A DNA stretch of 64,000 nucleotides from NCBI GenBank assembly GCA_017937845.1, contig JAGBCV010000018.1, positions 23,503-87,502 of the forward strand, in the 5' to 3' direction. Every line of letters starts with the position of its first letter. Position 1 is the first letter of the stretch. The position numbers were made by a program, and so were the translations under genes. Source of the DNA: Clostridia bacterium (GTDB lineage: Bacteria > Bacillota > Clostridia > Oscillospirales > CAG-272). The notes below the pieces were generated by a model. That model saw only the letters and a program-made list of their open reading frames with translations. It did no database searches and was not told the origin of the DNA. Of the stretch, positions 45,272 to 55,526 are shown piece by piece.

Positions 45272-46109
45272 GACGACGAACACCTCCTGTCAAATTGCAG
45301 ATATGCTCTGCTTCTTCTTCCTTATAGAAGCCGTTGCGCTTGATCAGCTCATCCCAATCGACTTCATGACCGTTAAATTCGGGACCGTCTACGCAAGCAA
45401 ATTTCGTTTTGCCACCGACGGTGACACGGCAACCGCCGCACATACCCGTTCCGTCGATCATGATGGGGTTGAGGGAAACTACGGTGGGGATATCAAAGGG
45501 TGCGGTAACGGCGCAGACGAATTTCATCATCATCGCAGGACCGATGGCAACGACCTCGTCGTATTTTGCACCGCCCTCAATGAGAGATTTGAGCTTGTTC
45601 GTGGTGAAGCCCTTTTCGCCGTAAGAGCCGTCGTCCGTGGTGATATAGAGATTGGTGCAGCTTTTTCTCATTTCGTCTTCCAAAATGACGATATCACGGC
45701 TGCGGAAGCCTGCGATCATATCGACCTCGGCGCCTGCCTCATGGAGCGCTTTGGCAACAGGATACGCGATGGCGCAGCCAACACCGCCGCCGACAACGGC
45801 AACACGCTTGAAGCCTTCGGTTTTGGAAGGCTTGCCGAGAGGGCCGGCAAAGTCGAGGATGTAGTCGCCTGCGTTCAGCTCTGCGAGCATTCTGGTGGAA
45901 CCGCCGACGGGCTGGAACATGATGGTGACGGTACCTTTTTCGCGGTCATAATCCGCAACGGTCAGCGGAACACGTTCGCCATATTCATCAATGCGGAAGA
46001 TGATGAACTGACCTGCAAGACATTTTTTTGCAACAAGGGGTGCTTCCACGACCATTTCAATGACGTTTTTTGCTTCGTTGAGGAAGCGTTTGCTAACGAT
46101 TTTATACAA
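45264..46109 (-). CDS. nfnA: ferredoxin-NADP reductase-like FAD/[2Fe-2S] subunit (NfnA type)
   Basis: 281 aa. FNR-like fold and a C-terminal CGGCRV Cys motif. 8-nt overlap with nfnB. TTG start after GGAGGT. Confidence 0.7.
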   Translation of the reverse strand: MYKIVSKRFLNEAKNVIEMVVEAPLVAKKCLAGQFIIFRIDEYGERVPLTVADYDREKGTVTIMFQPVGGSTRMLAELNAGDYILDFAGPLGKPSKTEGFKRVAVVGGGVGCAIAYPVAKALHEAGAEVDMIAGFRSRDIVILEDEMRKSCTNLYITTDDGSYGEKGFTTNKLKSLIEGGAKYDEVVAIGPAMMMKFVCAVTAPFDIPTVVSLNPIMIDGTGMCGGCRVTVGGKTKFACVDGPEFNGHEVDWDELIKRNGFYKEEEAEHICNLTGGVRRHG

Positions 46110-49141: not shown

Positions 49142-50332
49142 TTAGACTTCGTCATTCAAAAAGGCAACGGCATAAGCGGCATATATACTGCTTCCGACGA
49201 GCAAACAGCTTTCGTCGATATCAAAATGACAGTTGTGCATTGCCACGCCCGTTTCAAACACGTCGGGGTTGCAAGAACCGACGTAAGCGTAAACACCCGG
49301 CACTTTCAAGATATATTCCGCGAAATCATCGCCGCCGAGAGAGGGTTCGCCGCTTGTGATGACGTTTTTCTCACCGAAAAGCTCGCGTGCGACCTTCTGC
49401 GCTTCAATAGCAGATGCTTTATCGTTGATGAGCGGGGAGGTGTAGTCTTTCCATTCGAGCGTTGCTTCACCGCCAAAGGAGCTTGCGATGCTCTTTGCGA
49501 GGCTTTCCAGCTGGCTCTTGGCAAAGGCGCGTGTTTCGGGGGTCAGACAGCGAATCGTGCCTTCCATTTCTGCATCGGATGCGACGATATTGTACGCCGT
49601 GCCTGCGGAGACCTTGCCGATGCCGATAAGCACGTTATCCATCGGGCTTGTACGGCGCGTGATGATCGCCTGCGCCGAAACCATGATCTGCGCCGCGATA
49701 TACGCCGCATCCACGCCGAGATGCGGTGTGGAAACGTGAGCGGATTTACCCGTTACACGGATGCGGAACCAATCCACGCTTGCGTTGTTGGGACCCGGAA
49801 TGAGCGCGATCTTGCCCGCGTCATACTTGGATGCGACGTGGATACCGAATGTGCGATCTGCACCGTCAACAAGTCCCTCGTCGATGAATACGCGCGCGCC
49901 GTAGCCGATTTCCTCGCCTTGCTGAAAATGCACGCGGACAGTACCGCCGAAAAGATTGCGGTTTTCTGCGAGAAGTCGAACGGCACCCATCAGGCTCGCC
50001 GTGTGCGCGTCATGACCGCAAGCATGCATAACGCCCGCATGGCGGCTCGTATATTCGCAAATATGCTCCTCTGTGACAGCGAGAGCATCGATATCGGCAC
50101 GAAGTACGATGGTTTTGTTTCCTTCGCCTGAGCCGTGGATTTCGGTGTAAACGCCCGTTTCTCCGACACGGCGCGGGGTAAGACCGAGCTTTTTGATCTC
50201 TTCTTCCAATTTTTCCGCGGTCTTAAATTCTTTTGCGGAAACCTCGGGATACATATGAAAATGACGGCGAAGCGCTACCACGTCCGCGTGGATTTTTTTT
50301 GCTTCGTCAAGAAAATATTGGGTATATTTCAT
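49142..50332 (-). CDS. M20-family amidohydrolase (N-acyl-amino-acid deacylase / hippurate hydrolase-like)
   Basis: 396 aa. HMYPEVS, RADIDAL and MHACGHDAHT motifs. Confidence 0.85.
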   Translation of the reverse strand: MKYTQYFLDEAKKIHADVVALRRHFHMYPEVSAKEFKTAEKLEEEIKKLGLTPRRVGETGVYTEIHGSGEGNKTIVLRADIDALAVTEEHICEYTSRHAGVMHACGHDAHTASLMGAVRLLAENRNLFGGTVRVHFQQGEEIGYGARVFIDEGLVDGADRTFGIHVASKYDAGKIALIPGPNNASVDWFRIRVTGKSAHVSTPHLGVDAAYIAAQIMVSAQAIITRRTSPMDNVLIGIGKVSAGTAYNIVASDAEMEGTIRCLTPETRAFAKSQLESLAKSIASSFGGEATLEWKDYTSPLINDKASAIEAQKVARELFGEKNVITSGEPSLGGDDFAEYILKVPGVYAYVGSCNPDVFETGVAMHNCHFDIDESCLLVGSSIYAAYAVAFLNDEV

Positions 50333-50393: not shown

Positions 50394-51326
50394 TTAGTTT
50401 TCAAGGTCAGAGGTTCTGGCAACGATGATGTTGACATAGGGGTTGTTGCCGTCTGTGCCCTGGGATTCGATGATAAGAGCATCTCTGGAGGGGCTGAGAC
50501 CGATATCAGTAGCATAAGTACCGTTGATGGTGCAAGCATCATAGTCATTGAGGAGGGAAGGAAGTGTATCAGCAGTGGTAGGAATTACTTCTACATTGTA
50601 GAGGTAGTTTGTGATATGCTTCATTTCGGGATTGTAGCCTGCTGCGGGGTCAACCTCGATAAGACCTGCGGATTCCAAAAGCTTGATTGCACGAGCCTGG
50701 TTGGTAGCGTCATCGGGAATACCGATCTTGATCTTGTTGGTATCGGTTGCAAGTGCCTTGAGAGCTTCGAGATCTTTTACCTTGTTGGAATAGAGAGAAA
50801 GAGGCGCGATGAGAGTATCGCCTACGATGGTAAGGTCATAACCCTGAGCATCCATTTCTTTCTGGAGGTAAGCCTTGTGCTGGAAGGAGTTGAGGTGAAT
50901 TTCACCGTTTGCGAGAGCCTGGTTGGGGAGGTTGTAAGCAGAAAATTCGATGAGTTCGAGGTAGATACCTGCGTTCTGATCGTCAAGAACCTTCTGAACA
51001 GCGTTCCAGTGATCGTTGGAGGAACCGCAAACCCCGATCTTTACAATGATCTTACCCTCTTTGGAGGATTCGTAATCATCGATTTCTGCAACGAGAGCAG
51101 CGGGATCAACATCAAGTTCTTCATAGTCGTATGCGGGGAAGTAAGCTTCTTTGTATTTTTCGATCATGTAAACCGCAACGGGAGCTGTCTGGAAAGCATC
51201 TACGATCTTGTCATAAACAGCTTTGTCAACCTTTTCGGTCTTACCGCAAGAGGTGAAAGCGAAGCAACCGACAAGAAGGATGGCGGCGAGTGTGAAGGAA
51301 AGAATACGCTTGAAAGTGTTTTTCAT
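50394..51326 (-). CDS. metQ: methionine ABC transporter substrate-binding lipoprotein (MetQ/NlpA family)
   Basis: Lipobox AFTSC. NlpA-family core (LELIEFSAYNLPNQALANGEIHLNSFQHKAYL). Confidence 0.85.
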   Translation of the reverse strand: MKNTFKRILSFTLAAILLVGCFAFTSCGKTEKVDKAVYDKIVDAFQTAPVAVYMIEKYKEAYFPAYDYEELDVDPAALVAEIDDYESSKEGKIIVKIGVCGSSNDHWNAVQKVLDDQNAGIYLELIEFSAYNLPNQALANGEIHLNSFQHKAYLQKEMDAQGYDLTIVGDTLIAPLSLYSNKVKDLEALKALATDTNKIKIGIPDDATNQARAIKLLESAGLIEVDPAAGYNPEMKHITNYLYNVEVIPTTADTLPSLLNDYDACTINGTYATDIGLSPSRDALIIESQGTDGNNPYVNIIVARTSDLEN

Positions 51327-51351: not shown

Positions 51352-52074
51352 TTATTTTTTTTCGTTTTTAGAATGGGATTTTTTGAAAAGACTTCTGTTG
51401 GTCGTCTTTTTTGCGAGGAAAGAGCCGATGCCTTGCAGGATGCAAACGAAAATGAGAAGAACGATCACGCAGACGTTTACGATATCCTGATGGAACTGGT
51501 TCTGTCCGTAGCTGATCGCGAAGCTGCCAAGACCGCCTGCACCGACAGCGCCTGCCATTGCGGTCAGACCGACAAGGCTGATGGCGGTGATGGTGGTCAC
51601 GCGGACGAGCTCCGGAACGGCTTCATGGAGATAAATGCGGAAGATCAGACCGAACGTATTGCTGCCCATGCTTCTTGCGGCTTCGATCTTGCCGGGGGCA
51701 ACGTTGGCAAGCGCGGTCTCAACCTGTCTTGCGAAAAAGGGAACCGTACCAAACACGAGAGGCACGATAGCGCCCGTCACACCGATCGCCGTACCGACGA
51801 TGGCGCGGGTAAAGGGGATAAGGAATATCAAAAGAATGATAAACGGAATGGAACGGAAAACGTTGATGAAAATATCGATGATGGAGAAGATCACGCGGTT
51901 TGGTTTGATGCCGTCTTTCTTGGTAACGGTGAGAATGACACCGACGATAAGACCGAGGAAAAACGAGATGACACCGGAGATCGCAAACATTTGAAGTGTT
52001 GCGATGCAAGCATCGAAGAATTTTTCCTGATAATCAAGGACGTTGGGTATGAGTTTTTCAAGAAGCTCTGCCAT
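51352..52074 (-). CDS. metI: methionine ABC transporter permease
   Basis: 240 aa with 5 TM segments and the EAARSMG permease loop. Confidence 0.9.
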   Translation of the reverse strand: MAELLEKLIPNVLDYQEKFFDACIATLQMFAISGVISFFLGLIVGVILTVTKKDGIKPNRVIFSIIDIFINVFRSIPFIILLIFLIPFTRAIVGTAIGVTGAIVPLVFGTVPFFARQVETALANVAPGKIEAARSMGSNTFGLIFRIYLHEAVPELVRVTTITAISLVGLTAMAGAVGAGGLGSFAISYGQNQFHQDIVNVCVIVLLIFVCILQGIGSFLAKKTTNRSLFKKSHSKNEKK

Positions 52075-53134
52075 GTTCGATGACCTCCGTTCTGACGTTT
52101 TTCTCTTTGAGATACGACATCGCGCTTGCGATATCGTTTTCCTTGCCTGTAAGCACGGTGATCATGCTGCCGAGCTGTTCGCCCTTGAGGATTTCGACGT
52201 TGGCAAGCACGATATTGAAATCCACGTTGAATCTGCGGGAGATATCGGAGATGATGGCATCGCCGACGACGGTGTGTTCAAAAATAAGCTTCACGAGAAG
52301 TCCACCGTCCTTGGTTTGGATAAACGGAGAATCCTTGCGAACGAGGCTGTGGATCTTTTTGAGCGGAGAAGCGGAGATGATGAACTTTTTCGTGATATCC
52401 TTTTGCGGATTTGCGAAGATATCGTAGACCTTGCCTTCCTCTACGACCTCACCGTGTTCCATGACGGCGACCTTGTGGCAGACTGCCTTGATGACCGCCA
52501 TTTCGTGTGTGATGAGCACGATGGTGATACCGAGCTTTTTGTTCAGGCTTTTGAGCAGACCGAGAATGGATTCCGTCGCATCGGGGTCGAGGGCGCTCGT
52601 CGCTTCATCGGAAAGAAGGACCTTGGGGTTGTTTGCAAGCGCTCTTGCGATCGCCACGCGCTGCTTCTGACCGCCCGAAAGCTGGCTCGGATAAGCATCT
52701 ATCTTGTCCGAAAGGTCGACAAGCTCAAGAAGCTCGATGACGCGGTCATATATCTGCTCTTTGTTCATGCCGATATGCTTTAAGGGGTAGGCGATGTTTT
52801 CAAAAACGGTGCTTCTATCAAGCAAATTAAAATGCTGGAAGATCATACCGATGCCGCGGCGAACACGGTTGAGGTCTTTGTTTTTGATGACCTTCATCGT
52901 ATCGTTTTCCATCCACGTCAGCTTTTCACCGCCGACGGTGATGCTGCCCGAATCGGGAAGCTCCAAAAGATTGATACAGCGAATAAGAGAAGATTTACCG
53001 GCACCCGAATATCCGATGATACCGTAAATATCGCCTTCTCGAATGGTTAAATTGACGTCGTGAACAGCATCTACGTCACCCGATTTGGAGTGATAGGTTT
53101 TATTCAGATGCTGAATTTCAATCATCGAGTTCAC
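52058..53134 (-). CDS. metN: methionine ABC transporter ATP-binding protein
   Basis: Walker A GYSGAGKSS, LSGGQKQR and a C-terminal NIL domain. The start is either the GTG at 53134 (9 nt after AAGGAGA) or the ATG at 53125. The track's 53287 start runs into the leader. Confidence 0.9.
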   Translation of the reverse strand: MNSMIEIQHLNKTYHSKSGDVDAVHDVNLTIREGDIYGIIGYSGAGKSSLIRCINLLELPDSGSITVGGEKLTWMENDTMKVIKNKDLNRVRRGIGMIFQHFNLLDRSTVFENIAYPLKHIGMNKEQIYDRVIELLELVDLSDKIDAYPSQLSGGQKQRVAIARALANNPKVLLSDEATSALDPDATESILGLLKSLNKKLGITIVLITHEMAVIKAVCHKVAVMEHGEVVEEGKVYDIFANPQKDITKKFIISASPLKKIHSLVRKDSPFIQTKDGGLLVKLIFEHTVVGDAIISDISRRFNVDFNIVLANVEILKGEQLGSMITVLTGKENDIASAMSYLKEKNVRTEVIEHGRAS

Positions 53135-53179
53135 TTTCTTTTTCTCCTTAGATTTTTGACTTATCCAAATGTTTTTTGT

Positions 53180-53278
53180 CATGTGAAATTGCACGGATCG
53201 ACCTTGCCGCTTCGATGTGTTTGAAGATGCGTAGGTTCGAGATGGGCGAGCAATTTCTGGGGGCGCTGCCCGCTTTTT
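53180..53278. repeat. ~100-nt structured element, copy B (in the metN leader)
   Basis: See copy A at 32115..32214. Here the CTCGCC arm is CTTGCC, which still pairs with GGCGAG through a U-G wobble only if the plus strand is the RNA. Confidence 0.6.
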
Positions 53279-53283
53279 TGCAA

Positions 53284-53310
53284 ACAAAAAGCGGAGATTT
53301 TACTCTCCGC
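53284..53310 (-). terminator. intrinsic terminator (attenuator) between the Met-rich leader ORF and metN
   Basis: Minus strand GCGGAGA gtaaaa TCTCCGC followed by TTTTTGTTTG. Confidence 0.7.
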
Positions 53311-53353
53311 TTGAAAAAACAACATGATCAACTAAAAATGCTATTTTATGCCC

Positions 53354-53452
53354 TCAGGCAGAGATTTCATCATTATGAGCGTGAAAAGACATGCACATGA
53401 CTGCCATGCACATCATCATATCCATCATCATAACGGACTTGCGCTCAAACAT
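53354..53452 (-). CDS. candidate Met-rich leader peptide (32 aa, unlisted)
   Basis: GGAGAG RBS 6 nt upstream of the ATG at 53452. MFERKSVMMMDMMMCMAVMCMSFHAHNDEISA, TGA at 53356-53354. 10 of 32 codons are ATG and 2 are TGC. Confidence 0.55.
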   Translation of the reverse strand: MFERKSVMMMDMMMCMAVMCMSFHAHNDEISA

Positions 53453-53490
53453 GATATACTCTCCTGTCTCATTTGAATTTTTATGACACC

Positions 53491-53519
53491 ATATTACCAC
53501 ATTGAAACTGTCTTGTCAA
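53491..53519 (-). promoter_or_regulatory. near-consensus sigma-A promoter driving the met leader
   Basis: On the minus strand: TTGACA (53519-53514), 17 nt, TAATAT (53496-53491). Confidence 0.7.
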
Positions 53520-53619
53520 TAGTTTTTGTAAATTTTATGAAAAAAGTCTATCGGTAACGAATAGCCGCGTTTATCGTTTCCAAACGGAGCGTGTTTTTTC
53601 ATAAATATCGAAAAAACTC

Positions 53620-53648
53620 TTGACAACTTCATCTGAACTGTGTATAAT
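53620..53648 (+). promoter_or_regulatory. perfect consensus sigma-A promoter of the GntR-ABC operon
   Basis: TTGACA (53620-53625), 17 nt, TATAAT (53643-53648). Confidence 0.8.
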
Positions 53649-53659
53649 TCAAATATACA
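53641..53659. promoter_or_regulatory. candidate operator palindrome overlapping the -10
   Basis: TGTATA-N7-TATACA. Confidence 0.35.
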
Positions 53660-53669
53660 GTTTTAACAG

Positions 53670-54059
53670 GTGGGTGATGATGTGAATATTTTAATTGATA
53701 ATAAGAGCGGCGAACCGATATATAATCAGATATATTCTCAAATCAAAAATCAGATCATAAGCGGTGAACTGAAAGAGAATGAGATGCTTCCGTCTATACG
53801 GGGACTTGCTAAAGATCTGCGTATCAGCTTTATCACGACCAAGCGTGCGTATGAAGAGCTTGAAAAGGAAGGCTTCATTTATACGCTCCCTGCCAAGGGG
53901 TGTTATGTTGCTGCGAAAAACGTTGAACTTTTACGCGAGGAAAATCTGAAGAAGATAGAGGCTCATATTGAGCAGATCGCAAGGCTTGCCGCGTCCTGTA
54001 ATTTAAGCCGTGACGATATTTTTGAGATGATTAGGTTCGGAATGGAGGAACAAGAATGA
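53670..54059 (+). CDS. GntR-family (YtrA-subfamily) transcriptional regulator
   Basis: 129 aa, PIYNQIYSQIKNQIISGELKENEMLPSIRGLAKDLRISFITTKRAYEELEKEGFIYTLPAKGCYV. Confidence 0.85.
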   Translation: MGDDVNILIDNKSGEPIYNQIYSQIKNQIISGELKENEMLPSIRGLAKDLRISFITTKRAYEELEKEGFIYTLPAKGCYVAAKNVELLREENLKKIEAHIEQIARLAASCNLSRDDIFEMIRFGMEEQE

Positions 54060-54898
54060 ACGCACTTGAGATCAAGAATGTGAGCAAATCCTTTTCGGGA
54101 TTTTGTTTGGATAATATCAGCCTTGCTTTGCCAAGCGGTTGTATTATGGGGCTTATCGGTGAGAACGGAGCGGGCAAAAGCACAACGATAAAGCTTATCT
54201 TGGATATGATTCATAAGGATAGCGGAACGATCACAGTACTTGGCAAGGACAATGAACATGATATTTCACTTACCAAAGAAGATGTCGGTGTCGTAATGGA
54301 CGAGGTCGGTATGCCCGAATGCTTAACGGCAAAGCAGATTGGCAAGGTCATGAAGTATACCTTTCGTAATTGGGATGAGGCTGAGTATGCCCGACTTCTG
54401 CAAAAACTATCCCTGCCCGATAACAAGCCTTTCAAGGACTTTTCGCGCGGTATGAAGATGAAACTCGGTATTGCCGTTGCGATGTCACACGGTGCGAAGC
54501 TATTACTGCTTGACGAGCCGACGAGCGGGCTTGATCCCGTCGTGCGCGATGAAGTGGTTGAGATGTTCTATGACTTTACAAGAGATGAAAACCACACCAT
54601 TCTCATATCCTCGCACATCGTCAGCGACCTCGAAAGGCTTTGTGATTACGTGGCTTTTTTGCATAAAGGTAAACTATTGCTTTGCGAGGAAAAGGATGTG
54701 CTTTTATCCGAATATGGCATTATTCATTGCACGGTAGAACAGCTTTCGGAGCTTGACAACGAAGTGATAAGATACAGAAAAGAAACGCCTTACGGTGCCG
54801 AGGTCATTGTGCCGCGCAAGGATGCGCCCGATGGTTTTCGGTTAAGCCCGATAAGCATTGAGGAACTGTTCGTATTTATGGTAAAGGAGGCGAGATGA
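54056..54898 (+). CDS. ABC transporter ATP-binding protein
   Basis: Walker A GENGAGKST, Walker B LLLLDEPTSGLD. 4-nt overlap with the regulator gene. Confidence 0.9.
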   Translation: MNALEIKNVSKSFSGFCLDNISLALPSGCIMGLIGENGAGKSTTIKLILDMIHKDSGTITVLGKDNEHDISLTKEDVGVVMDEVGMPECLTAKQIGKVMKYTFRNWDEAEYARLLQKLSLPDNKPFKDFSRGMKMKLGIAVAMSHGAKLLLLDEPTSGLDPVVRDEVVEMFYDFTRDENHTILISSHIVSDLERLCDYVAFLHKGKLLLCEEKDVLLSEYGIIHCTVEQLSELDNEVIRYRKETPYGAEVIVPRKDAPDGFRLSPISIEELFVFMVKEAR

Positions 54899-54899
54899 T

Positions 54900-55526
54900 A
54901 TGAAAGGGCTATTGTTAAAAGATTGGTATATGACCAAAAAATATTGCAGATATTATCTTTTTGTCGGAATAGGCTTCATCATTCTTTCTTTTATGAGCAA
55001 AGGGAATATGTTTTTCATTTTCTACCCTTGTTTGCTCTGCGGTATGATCCCCGTTCACCTGCTTGGATATGATGAACGCAGCCGCTTTACGGAATATGTC
55101 GGCACATTGCCATATACAAAAATACAAATCGTATCTGCAAAATATTTGATAGGTTTATTCATACAAATTGCTATGCTGACGGTTATTTGCATCACGCAGG
55201 GCGTTAAAATGAGTATCGAAGGCAATTTCGTTTTGAAAGAGTTTCTGGTGCTTATGATGCTTTTGCTGATCATGGCGAGCGTTGCCTCGTCGCTGACGCT
55301 TCCGTTTGTTTTCAAATATGGGGTGGAAAAAGGGCGCGGTGCTTACTATGTGATGATAGGCGTGGTGTGTGCGGGAAGCATCATCGCAACTACGATCTTT
55401 AAGAACGGTATGCAAAATGAAATGCAACTGAACGGCGTTTTGCCCATTGCTTGTCTTATAGGCGTTGGCATATATGTTCTTTCTTGGTATTTATCCATTG
55501 TCTTTTATAAAAAGAAAGAAATATAG
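54900..55526 (+). CDS. ABC-2 type transporter permease
   Basis: 208 aa with about 6 TM segments. Ends with a TAG stop. Confidence 0.75.
   Translation: MKGLLLKDWYMTKKYCRYYLFVGIGFIILSFMSKGNMFFIFYPCLLCGMIPVHLLGYDERSRFTEYVGTLPYTKIQIVSAKYLIGLFIQIAMLTVICITQGVKMSIEGNFVLKEFLVLMMLLLIMASVASSLTLPFVFKYGVEKGRGAYYVMIGVVCAGSIIATTIFKNGMQNEMQLNGVLPIACLIGVGIYVLSWYLSIVFYKKKEI

Follow-up and report, generated by a model that had tools for sequence, protein, structure and literature searches.

The 64,000-nucleotide (nt) stretch of DNA analysed here, referred to as the window, is derived from contig JAGBCV010000018.1 of a Clostridia bacterium (assembly GCA_017937845.1) and carries the methionine (Met) uptake operon metN-metI-metQ (metNIQ). 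The operon is preceded by a leader with a short, Met-codon-rich open reading frame (ORF) and an intrinsic terminator. We consider that this leader is probably a ribosome-mediated transcription attenuator, which senses the charging of elongator Met-tRNA and governs read-through into metNIQ. A first-pass annotation made from the sequence alone had proposed a ribosome-mediated Met attenuator at this site, and the sequence comparisons and folding calculations described below lend support to that reading.

The leader and the operon are located on the minus strand. The sigma-70-type promoter (53491..53519; 10/12 matches in a promoter and terminator scan) consists of a -35 box TTGACA at 53519..53514, a 17-nt spacer, and a TG-extended -10 box TAATAT at 53496..53491, and relatives repeat TTGACA and TGTGGTAAYAT-like boxes. 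The Shine-Dalgarno (SD) sequence GGAGAG at 53464..53459 is separated by 6 nt from the leader ATG (53452). The leader ORF (53354..53452) is translated as MFERKSVMMMDMMMCMAVMCMSFHAHNDEISA from 32 sense codons followed by TGA. Ten of these codons are ATG, including two ATGATGATG runs (53431..53423 and 53419..53411), and two are TGC. The putative regulatory codon block, ATGATGATG GAT ATGATGATG TGC ATG GCA GTC ATG TGC ATG, contains nine Met codons in 14 (53390..53431). It overlaps an in-ORF hairpin, AUGUGCAUGG-CAG-UCAUGUGCAU, which is followed by GUCUUUUC (53391..53413) and was flagged by the scan as a hairpin with a T-rich tail. The terminator (53286..53312) begins 44 nt past the leader stop codon and reads AAGCGGAGA-GTAAAA-TCTCCGCTT with a T run as DNA and AAGCGGAGA-GUAAAA-UCUCCGCUU with a U tract as RNA. 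The scan gave four terminator-like sites in the 1-kilobase (kb) region, compared with 0.6 expected. Recheck of the minus strand confirmed the promoter, ribosome-binding site, ORF, and terminator of the first-pass annotation together with their coordinates and spacings.

The metN GTG start at 53134 is located 220 nt from the end of the leader ORF and 150 nt from the terminator. In agreement with the earlier assignment, the best NCBIfam matches of the downstream genes are MetN, an ATP-binding cassette (ABC) ATPase with a NIL domain (52058..53134; 384.8 bits, with the next family at 227), the permease MetI (51352..52074), and the substrate-binding lipoprotein MetQ (50394..51326). Among 84,927 stop-free windows of 14 codons in the six frames of the 64-kb window, the nine ATG codons of the leader are the maximum, all others having five or fewer, and the binomial expectation for nine or more is 7e-8 windows. 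The sole ATGATGATG occurrence in the window outside the leader is at 45525..45533 (minus strand).

Met genes of Firmicutes are generally regarded as targets of S-box riboswitches, T-boxes, or protein regulators. The first-pass annotation had recognised neither an S-box, which senses S-adenosylmethionine (SAM), nor a T-box in the leader, and covariance model searches bear this out. Rfam 15 gave no match at the gathering score anywhere in the window. The SAM-I to SAM-VI, SAM/SAH riboswitch, and T-box (RF00230) models gave none at E ≤ 10 in 53050..53700, and no other Rfam family matched the leader at that level. No match was obtained in an Rfam scan of 17 loci with Met-rich leaders. For comparison, 80 metN loci were collected from species-representative genomes. 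In this set, a SAM-I riboswitch is located approximately 100–450 nt upstream of metN in L017, L019, L021, L022, and L024 (81–94 bits), and a T-box is located at a similar distance in L018, L023, L025, and L026 (94–118 bits). As positive controls, the SAM riboswitch models matched orthologous loci at 80–94 bits, and the T-box model matched L018, L020, L023, L025, and L026 at 94–118 bits. Since orthologous operons carry SAM-I or T-box elements at the same place and no Rfam family is matched here, the leader fills the S-box/T-box slot while being neither. Permissive Rfam matches (UPD-PKib, miRNA, and snoRNA models) were rejected as noise. The UPD-PKib match (E = 0.014) was traced to a small GC hairpin with a T run at 53575..53591 (plus strand) in the divergent promoter region, where no gene lies upstream on that strand. 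The Treponema/Spirochaetaceae metN loci L005, L007, and L008 have no leader RNA; approximately 60 nt upstream of metN, they have a promoter-like TTGACT(AG)...TATATACTAG(T) with CTAG-containing repeats, a region that is possibly an operator for a protein regulator.

The first-pass annotation had called for conservation of the short Met-run ORF and terminator upstream of metN, and this was found both in relatives and in more distant Clostridia. Among the 80 metN loci, an ORF with at least seven Met codons is directly upstream of metN in 10, all from Clostridia (L001, L003, L004, L009, L012–L016, and L028), and none was found among the Bacilli, Spirochaetes, and Proteobacteria of the set. A metagenome scan with the pattern ATGATGATGGAYATGATGATG yielded listed matches that were mostly unrelated low-complexity or long ORFs. 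Approximately 19 were kept by a filter on ORF length and context, adding at least 10 leader loci before metN/metQ-like genes (L091, L093, L103, L106, L185, L122/L130, L124, L158, L098, and L147). In all of 20 leaders, representing at least 12 sequence families, the start codon follows an AGGAG-type SD sequence at a distance of 6–10 nt, and 19–51 nt past the stop codon there is a hairpin with a T run; the terminators of L016 and L098 were placed by eye because the automatic search had mis-set them. Beyond these 20, Met-rich ORFs with an SD sequence and a hairpin with a T run were seen in 10 more close relatives.

A profile of the leader peptide retrieved approximately 120 clusters at 90% identity, all of 29–80 amino acids and labelled as hypothetical proteins or unnamed. 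The window peptide itself has been called as a gene, with identical sequence, in public assemblies (P0001). When 1.84 billion representatives were searched exhaustively with a profile, 42 clusters (50% identity) were obtained at E ≤ 1e-3, all of 31–59 amino acids. As all profile matches are short, larger proteins never contain the Met motif. The consensus of the family reads M..R...MMMDMMMCM.MCMCM..RAQ..SS..IS, with the core MMMDMMMCM..MCM. More distant leaders lack MMMDMMM and keep their Met richness, as in L012 (MMMRAMDMAMM), the L013 family, L016 (CMMNMCMCMM), and L028 (KMCMMMM).

Of 12 family members that were looked up, 11 sit directly upstream of a gene for an ABC_tran+NIL protein, followed in the fuller loci by BPD_transp_1 and Lipoprotein_9 (metNIQ). 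Their upstream neighbours are mutually unrelated (Metallophos, DUF1836, Glucosamine_iso, FRG, AzlD, PPDK, GH67N, NTP_transferase, and GntR). The twelfth, the distant P0103 (L217–L219), precedes an ABC ATPase without NIL, a permease, and a Cys_Met_Meta_PP enzyme dependent on pyridoxal phosphate, indicating that the leader family is not limited to canonical metNIQ. The P0103 locus adjoins a divergent gene for an Rrf2-family regulator. Leaders of this kind make up a sizeable family among uncultured Clostridia of the gut and rumen, and they are interchangeable with leaders of the S-box and T-box types.

To describe the evolution of the ORF, 15 window-type leaders were aligned (alignment A3). All 15 sequences keep the nine Met codons and the Asp codon unchanged. 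In the rest of the ORF, the minority-base counts at codon positions 1, 2, and 3 are 65, 54, and 63, with no excess of change at the third position, and indels within the ORF are multiples of three. The in-ORF hairpin (AUGYRCAUG...CAUGYGYAU) is paired in 100% of cells; in relatives, the first Cys codon is swapped for CGC, CAC, or UAC (Arg, His, or Tyr), with the hairpin pairing retained each time. The internal hairpin between the stop codon and the terminator has a 3' half of the AUGUUGUU type in most of the 15 leaders (variants AUGAUGUU, GUGUUGAU, ACGUUGUU, and AUGGUUUA) in a gappy column alignment. Because substitutions lack codon periodicity and only the Met and Asp codons are invariant, these data argue against a functional peptide. 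The conserved coding feature is thus the Met codons, and much of the remaining ORF is constrained as RNA.

These observations bear directly on the possibility that the ORF encodes a functional Met/Cys-rich micropeptide, such as a metal-binding peptide or an oxidation buffer, which has its own leaky terminator and is merely co-located with metNIQ. Public annotation of the ORF as a protein (P0001 and others) and the role of Met and Cys as metal-ligand residues would fit this explanation. However, the even spread of substitutions over the three codon positions, the free exchange of the first Cys under preserved RNA pairing, and the existence of several families without any Cys (e.g., P0087 and P0109) do not. 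In addition, the genes that directly follow the ORF are always Met/Cys genes, and the ORF exchanges position with S-box/T-box leaders; we regard the micropeptide as highly improbable.

The same alignment informs a second alternative, in which the conserved leader would serve as the aptamer of a riboswitch that has escaped recognition, or as a binding site for a protein or tRNA, and the ORF would be incidental. Sensing of SAM or tRNA is the norm for metNIQ in Firmicutes, and the secondary structure of the ORF region is indeed conserved with support from covariation (see below). Nevertheless, we judge this explanation very unlikely, given the lack of an Rfam match even at E ≤ 10 and the way the ORF has been preserved: the SD sequence, start codon, in-frame Met block, and stop codon are kept in every family despite divergence outside the block, and its indels occur in threes. 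It is the structured part that varies between families, whereas the Met richness stays.

Nascent-peptide arrest, as known from the arrest peptides TnaC, ErmCL, and plant CGS1, is a third alternative. Here the signal would be free Met, SAM, or another ligand instead of tRNA charging, and the conserved MMMDMMM(C)M peptide itself would cause the ribosome to stall; the terminator/antiterminator switch would be the same. The peptide core, including the non-Met Asp, is at least 90% conserved over 56 family members, and MMMDMMM recurs in a separate high-GC metY family (although that family was found by this very motif). On the other hand, the more distant leaders L012, L013 family, L016, and L028 lack the motif and keep the Met richness, and codon periodicity is absent outside the Met/Asp block, whereas selection on the amino-acid sequence is the normal finding for arrest peptides. 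For an uptake operon, moreover, it would be the wrong sign if an excess of Met or SAM were the inducer, unless termination resulted from arrest. Nascent-peptide arrest is thus very unlikely, and attenuation by Met-codon stalling is the reading considered in the following.

The candidate switch is composed of four segments. Segment A is the SD region CAGGAGAG (53459..53466), the ribosome-binding site of the leader ORF, which is able to pair with the ORF end and would act as an anti-antiterminator. Segment B, the switch strand UCUCUGCCUGA (53354..53364), comprises the final 8 nt of coding sequence and the stop codon and begins 26 nt past the last Met codon. Segment C, UCAAGCGGAGA (53304..53314), is the antiterminator 3' strand and overlaps the terminator 5' arm, and segment D is the 3' arm; C and D together form the terminator. 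The internal hairpin AAAAUAGCAU...AUGUUGUUUU (53316..53347) falls inside the antiterminator helix in constrained folds. The first-pass annotation had described pairing between the ORF end (TCTCTGCCTGA, 53364..53354) and TCAAGCGGAGA (53314..53304) at 10 of 11 positions, and the recount agrees, with nine Watson-Crick pairs, one G-U pair, and one C-A mismatch. Its switch layout was accurate with respect to the pairing of the ORF end with the terminator 5' arm and incomplete with respect to the SD region, which it had not noticed as a fourth segment. Since the ORF-end strand also pairs with the SD region, the switch comprises SD region, ORF end, terminator 5' arm, and 3' arm.

The off-state fold predicted by RNAalifold from A3 contains the pairing of the SD region with the ORF end, inner helices, the in-ORF hairpin, and the terminator. 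It is paired in 95.6% of cells, compared with 20–59% when the partner columns are slid, and eight of its pairs are changed on both sides, a number reached in none of 500 shuffles. Within it, the A:B helix (A3 columns 22–24 with 127–129) is kept in 97.8% of cells with two pairs changed on both sides, and the terminator helix is paired in 94% across the 15 leaders with three such pairs. The B:C antiterminator helix is paired in 84% of cells, compared with 45–61% for slid partner columns. Pairing was further compared among 13 families with different terminators by swapping partners: ORF ends pair with their own 5' arms at a mean of -11.0 kcal/mol, and the mean for swapped partners is -9.3 kcal/mol (permutation p = 0.005). 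For 11 of 18 leaders, the sequence that pairs with the 5' arm is situated within -32 to +11 of the stop codon.

Constrained folding gave the two predicted states. When a ribosome was placed over the Met codons and the 3' arm was left out, B paired with C and enclosed the internal hairpin, at -19.7 kcal/mol in the window, where the terminator hairpin alone has -14.3 kcal/mol. The corresponding stalled-ribosome B:C folds of the window, L001, L003, L004, and L009 range from -16 to -20 kcal/mol, and their terminators alone range from -12 to -17 kcal/mol. With the ribosome at the stop codon, the terminator formed in every fold that was readable.

Several observations weigh against the attenuator reading. 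The expected covariation of the antiterminator helix is weak within the close family, because the 7-bp B:C core is nearly invariant and only two cells are changed on both sides; this part of the first-pass proposal is supported mainly by the cross-family swap and the constrained folding. In four of the 13 families (L004, L016, L158, and L147), the complementarity of the ORF end is no better than that of swapped partners. In a shuffle test of pairing between the 5' arm and upstream sequence, the window had z = -1.67, with values from -2.75 to +2.05 overall and many families not significant. Equilibrium folding with a stalled ribosome favours the terminator state (-28.9 kcal/mol) over the antiterminator (-22.8 kcal/mol). 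In physiological terms, Met starvation also lowers initiator tRNA charging and could thereby reduce leader translation, favouring the off state. Finally, a model that only counts Met codons accounts neither for the invariant Asp codon nor for the frequent Cys codons. A purely thermodynamic switch was rejected on the basis of the equilibrium folding. As the terminator wins at equilibrium, the switch must be kinetic, and the trp attenuator, like other classical attenuators, is under kinetic control.

Taking the parts described above, their conservation, their link to Met genes, and their alternative pairings as the starting point, we infer that ribosomes stall at the Met codons, that the pairings compete kinetically, that the in-ORF hairpin has a pausing role, and that regulation proceeds as follows. 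Transcription would start from the promoter at 53519..53491, and a ribosome would load on the leader ORF. When Met is sufficient, the ribosome would reach UGA and mask B, so that the C:D terminator forms and transcription stops before metN. When charged Met-tRNA is scarce, the ribosome would stall in the nine-Met block (53431..53390), at least 26 nt upstream of B, and disrupt the ORF fold that ties B to A. The exposed B would then pair with C before D is transcribed, RNA polymerase would read through, and the transporter would be made. If the ORF is not translated at all, the whole ORF would fold, with A:B and C:D formed and transcription terminated, making off the default state. The in-ORF hairpin and the following GUCUUUUC may be an RNA polymerase pause site that couples the polymerase to the ribosome.

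Leader-peptide attenuation is a textbook mechanism, and to our knowledge methionine is missing from the amino acids that it senses. The most fitting description of the leader would be ribosome-mediated attenuation, a known mechanism, with a new amino-acid specificity, for Met. Like the enterobacterial trp, his, leu, thr, ilv, and pheA leaders, it has a short translated ORF in which codons for the regulated amino acid are over-represented, places an intrinsic terminator ahead of the first structural gene, and can form an antiterminator that overlaps the terminator 5' arm. As in those leaders, the stop codon would let a non-stalled ribosome mask the antiterminator strand, and termination would result when translation is absent. 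In contrast to them, the amino acid is Met, whose codon doubles as a start codon, the operon serves uptake rather than biosynthesis, and the host is a Clostridia-type Firmicute. Moreover, the counterpart of segment "1" is the SD region and the 5' part of the ORF instead of the regulatory codons, and there is no sequence similarity.

In Firmicutes, leader-peptide attenuators have been described for His (hisS/hisZ; Naville and Gautheret 2010, PMC2965389) and for a Leu-rich ilv leader of Staphylococcus aureus (PMC5794164), and neither paper describes a Met example. These leaders resemble the present one as cases of ribosome-mediated attenuation in a phylum dominated by T-boxes and riboswitches, replacing the T-box at orthologous genes, and differ from it in amino acid and sequence. 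In Streptomyces lividans TK24, "metL" (MSTTSDRTPATEATTTPGARCMCRRMCAF) was annotated upstream of metNIQ and proposed to be Met-dependent (Droste et al. 2021, PMC8079986). It is likewise a short ORF upstream of metNIQ and interleaves Met and Cys codons (…CMCRRMC…), but it has three Met codons after the start, a leaderless transcript, and, according to its authors, no clear intrinsic terminator, and it is an annotation only. Actinobacteria have leader-peptide attenuators for Trp, Ile/Val/Leu, and Cys (Seliverstov et al. 2005, PMC1262725). The actinobacterial cys leaders also consist of a sulfur amino-acid ORF, with runs of cognate codons near the stop codon; unlike the Met leader, they use Cys codons and have no terminator hairpin, and a Rho-dependent mechanism was suggested for them (PMC1262725). 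S-box (SAM-I) and Met T-box leaders share the position before metNIQ, the genes, and the output (premature intrinsic termination). They sense SAM or uncharged tRNA directly by RNA, whereas the present leader has neither fold and is proposed to need translation.

Beyond the S. lividans annotation, no described Met attenuator or MMMDMMM motif was found in the full-text literature, the coverage of which leaves out most subscription journals. The first-pass annotation was therefore essentially right in remarking that Met leader peptides are missing from the catalogued attenuator classes, as the element is absent from Rfam 15 and "metL" is the sole precedent found. A conserved Met leader would add a regulatory class for the annotation of metagenome-assembled genomes, in which the ORF is now a "hypothetical protein" or missed. 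It would also provide a clean system to study how the cell separates limitation of elongator Met-tRNA from that of initiator Met-tRNA, and would offer a compact Met-responsive genetic part. At a single locus, the same regulatory problem would be solved by three interchangeable RNA-based sensors.

Searching for the MMMDMMM motif itself recovered a second family of short ORFs from high-GC metagenome contigs (M[VA]R..F[VA]MMMDMMMTQPGS...; L094, L115, L149, L173, L182, L183, and L200; e.g., L094 2540..2720). These ORFs are located 16–64 nt upstream of an O-acetylhomoserine sulfhydrylase-like (metY type) gene, and the examined loci have neither a T-run terminator nor an Rfam match. Predicted pairing joins their Met run GAUGAUGGACAUGAUGAUGACC to GGUCAUCAUCCAUCAG, located immediately before the metY ribosome-binding site, which suggests a translational or Rho-dependent Met sensor. 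Pairing of the Met codons with a CAUCAU spacer sequence is clear in L202, L204, and the high-GC family and amounts to only 5 nt in the window. MMMDMMM upstream ORFs could be a general cross-phylum Met sensor, acting through a terminator before metNIQ in Clostridia and through Met-run pairing with the metY initiation region in high-GC organisms, but we hold this generalisation to be doubtful. If it were true, the invariant Asp and interleaved Cys codons would make the module more than a counter of Met codons, either a sequence for programmed arrest or a sensor of both Met and Cys.

Other features surround the leader and the operon. The terminator 3' arm and U tract (CCGCUUUUU) can pair with the downstream sequence AAAAAAGCGG (53270..53294), giving a terminator-like hairpin on the plus strand according to the scan, and L001 has a similar arrangement. 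This hairpin might be a stabiliser of read-through transcripts or a bidirectional stop. A gene for an M20-family amidohydrolase (TIGR01891, above the curated cut-off; 49142..50332, minus strand) begins 61 nt past metQ in the same orientation. It may share a transcript with metQ, and its product could release Met from N-acyl-Met or peptides. On the other side of the leader, a divergent operon (53620..55526, plus strand) has a perfect consensus promoter, TTGACA-17-TATAAT, at 53620..53648. Its products are a small GntR/PmtR-like regulator, a PmtA-like ABC ATPase, and a 208-residue protein without an NCBIfam match; in the identical L215 and L216 neighbours, this protein is Pfam ABC2_membrane_5.

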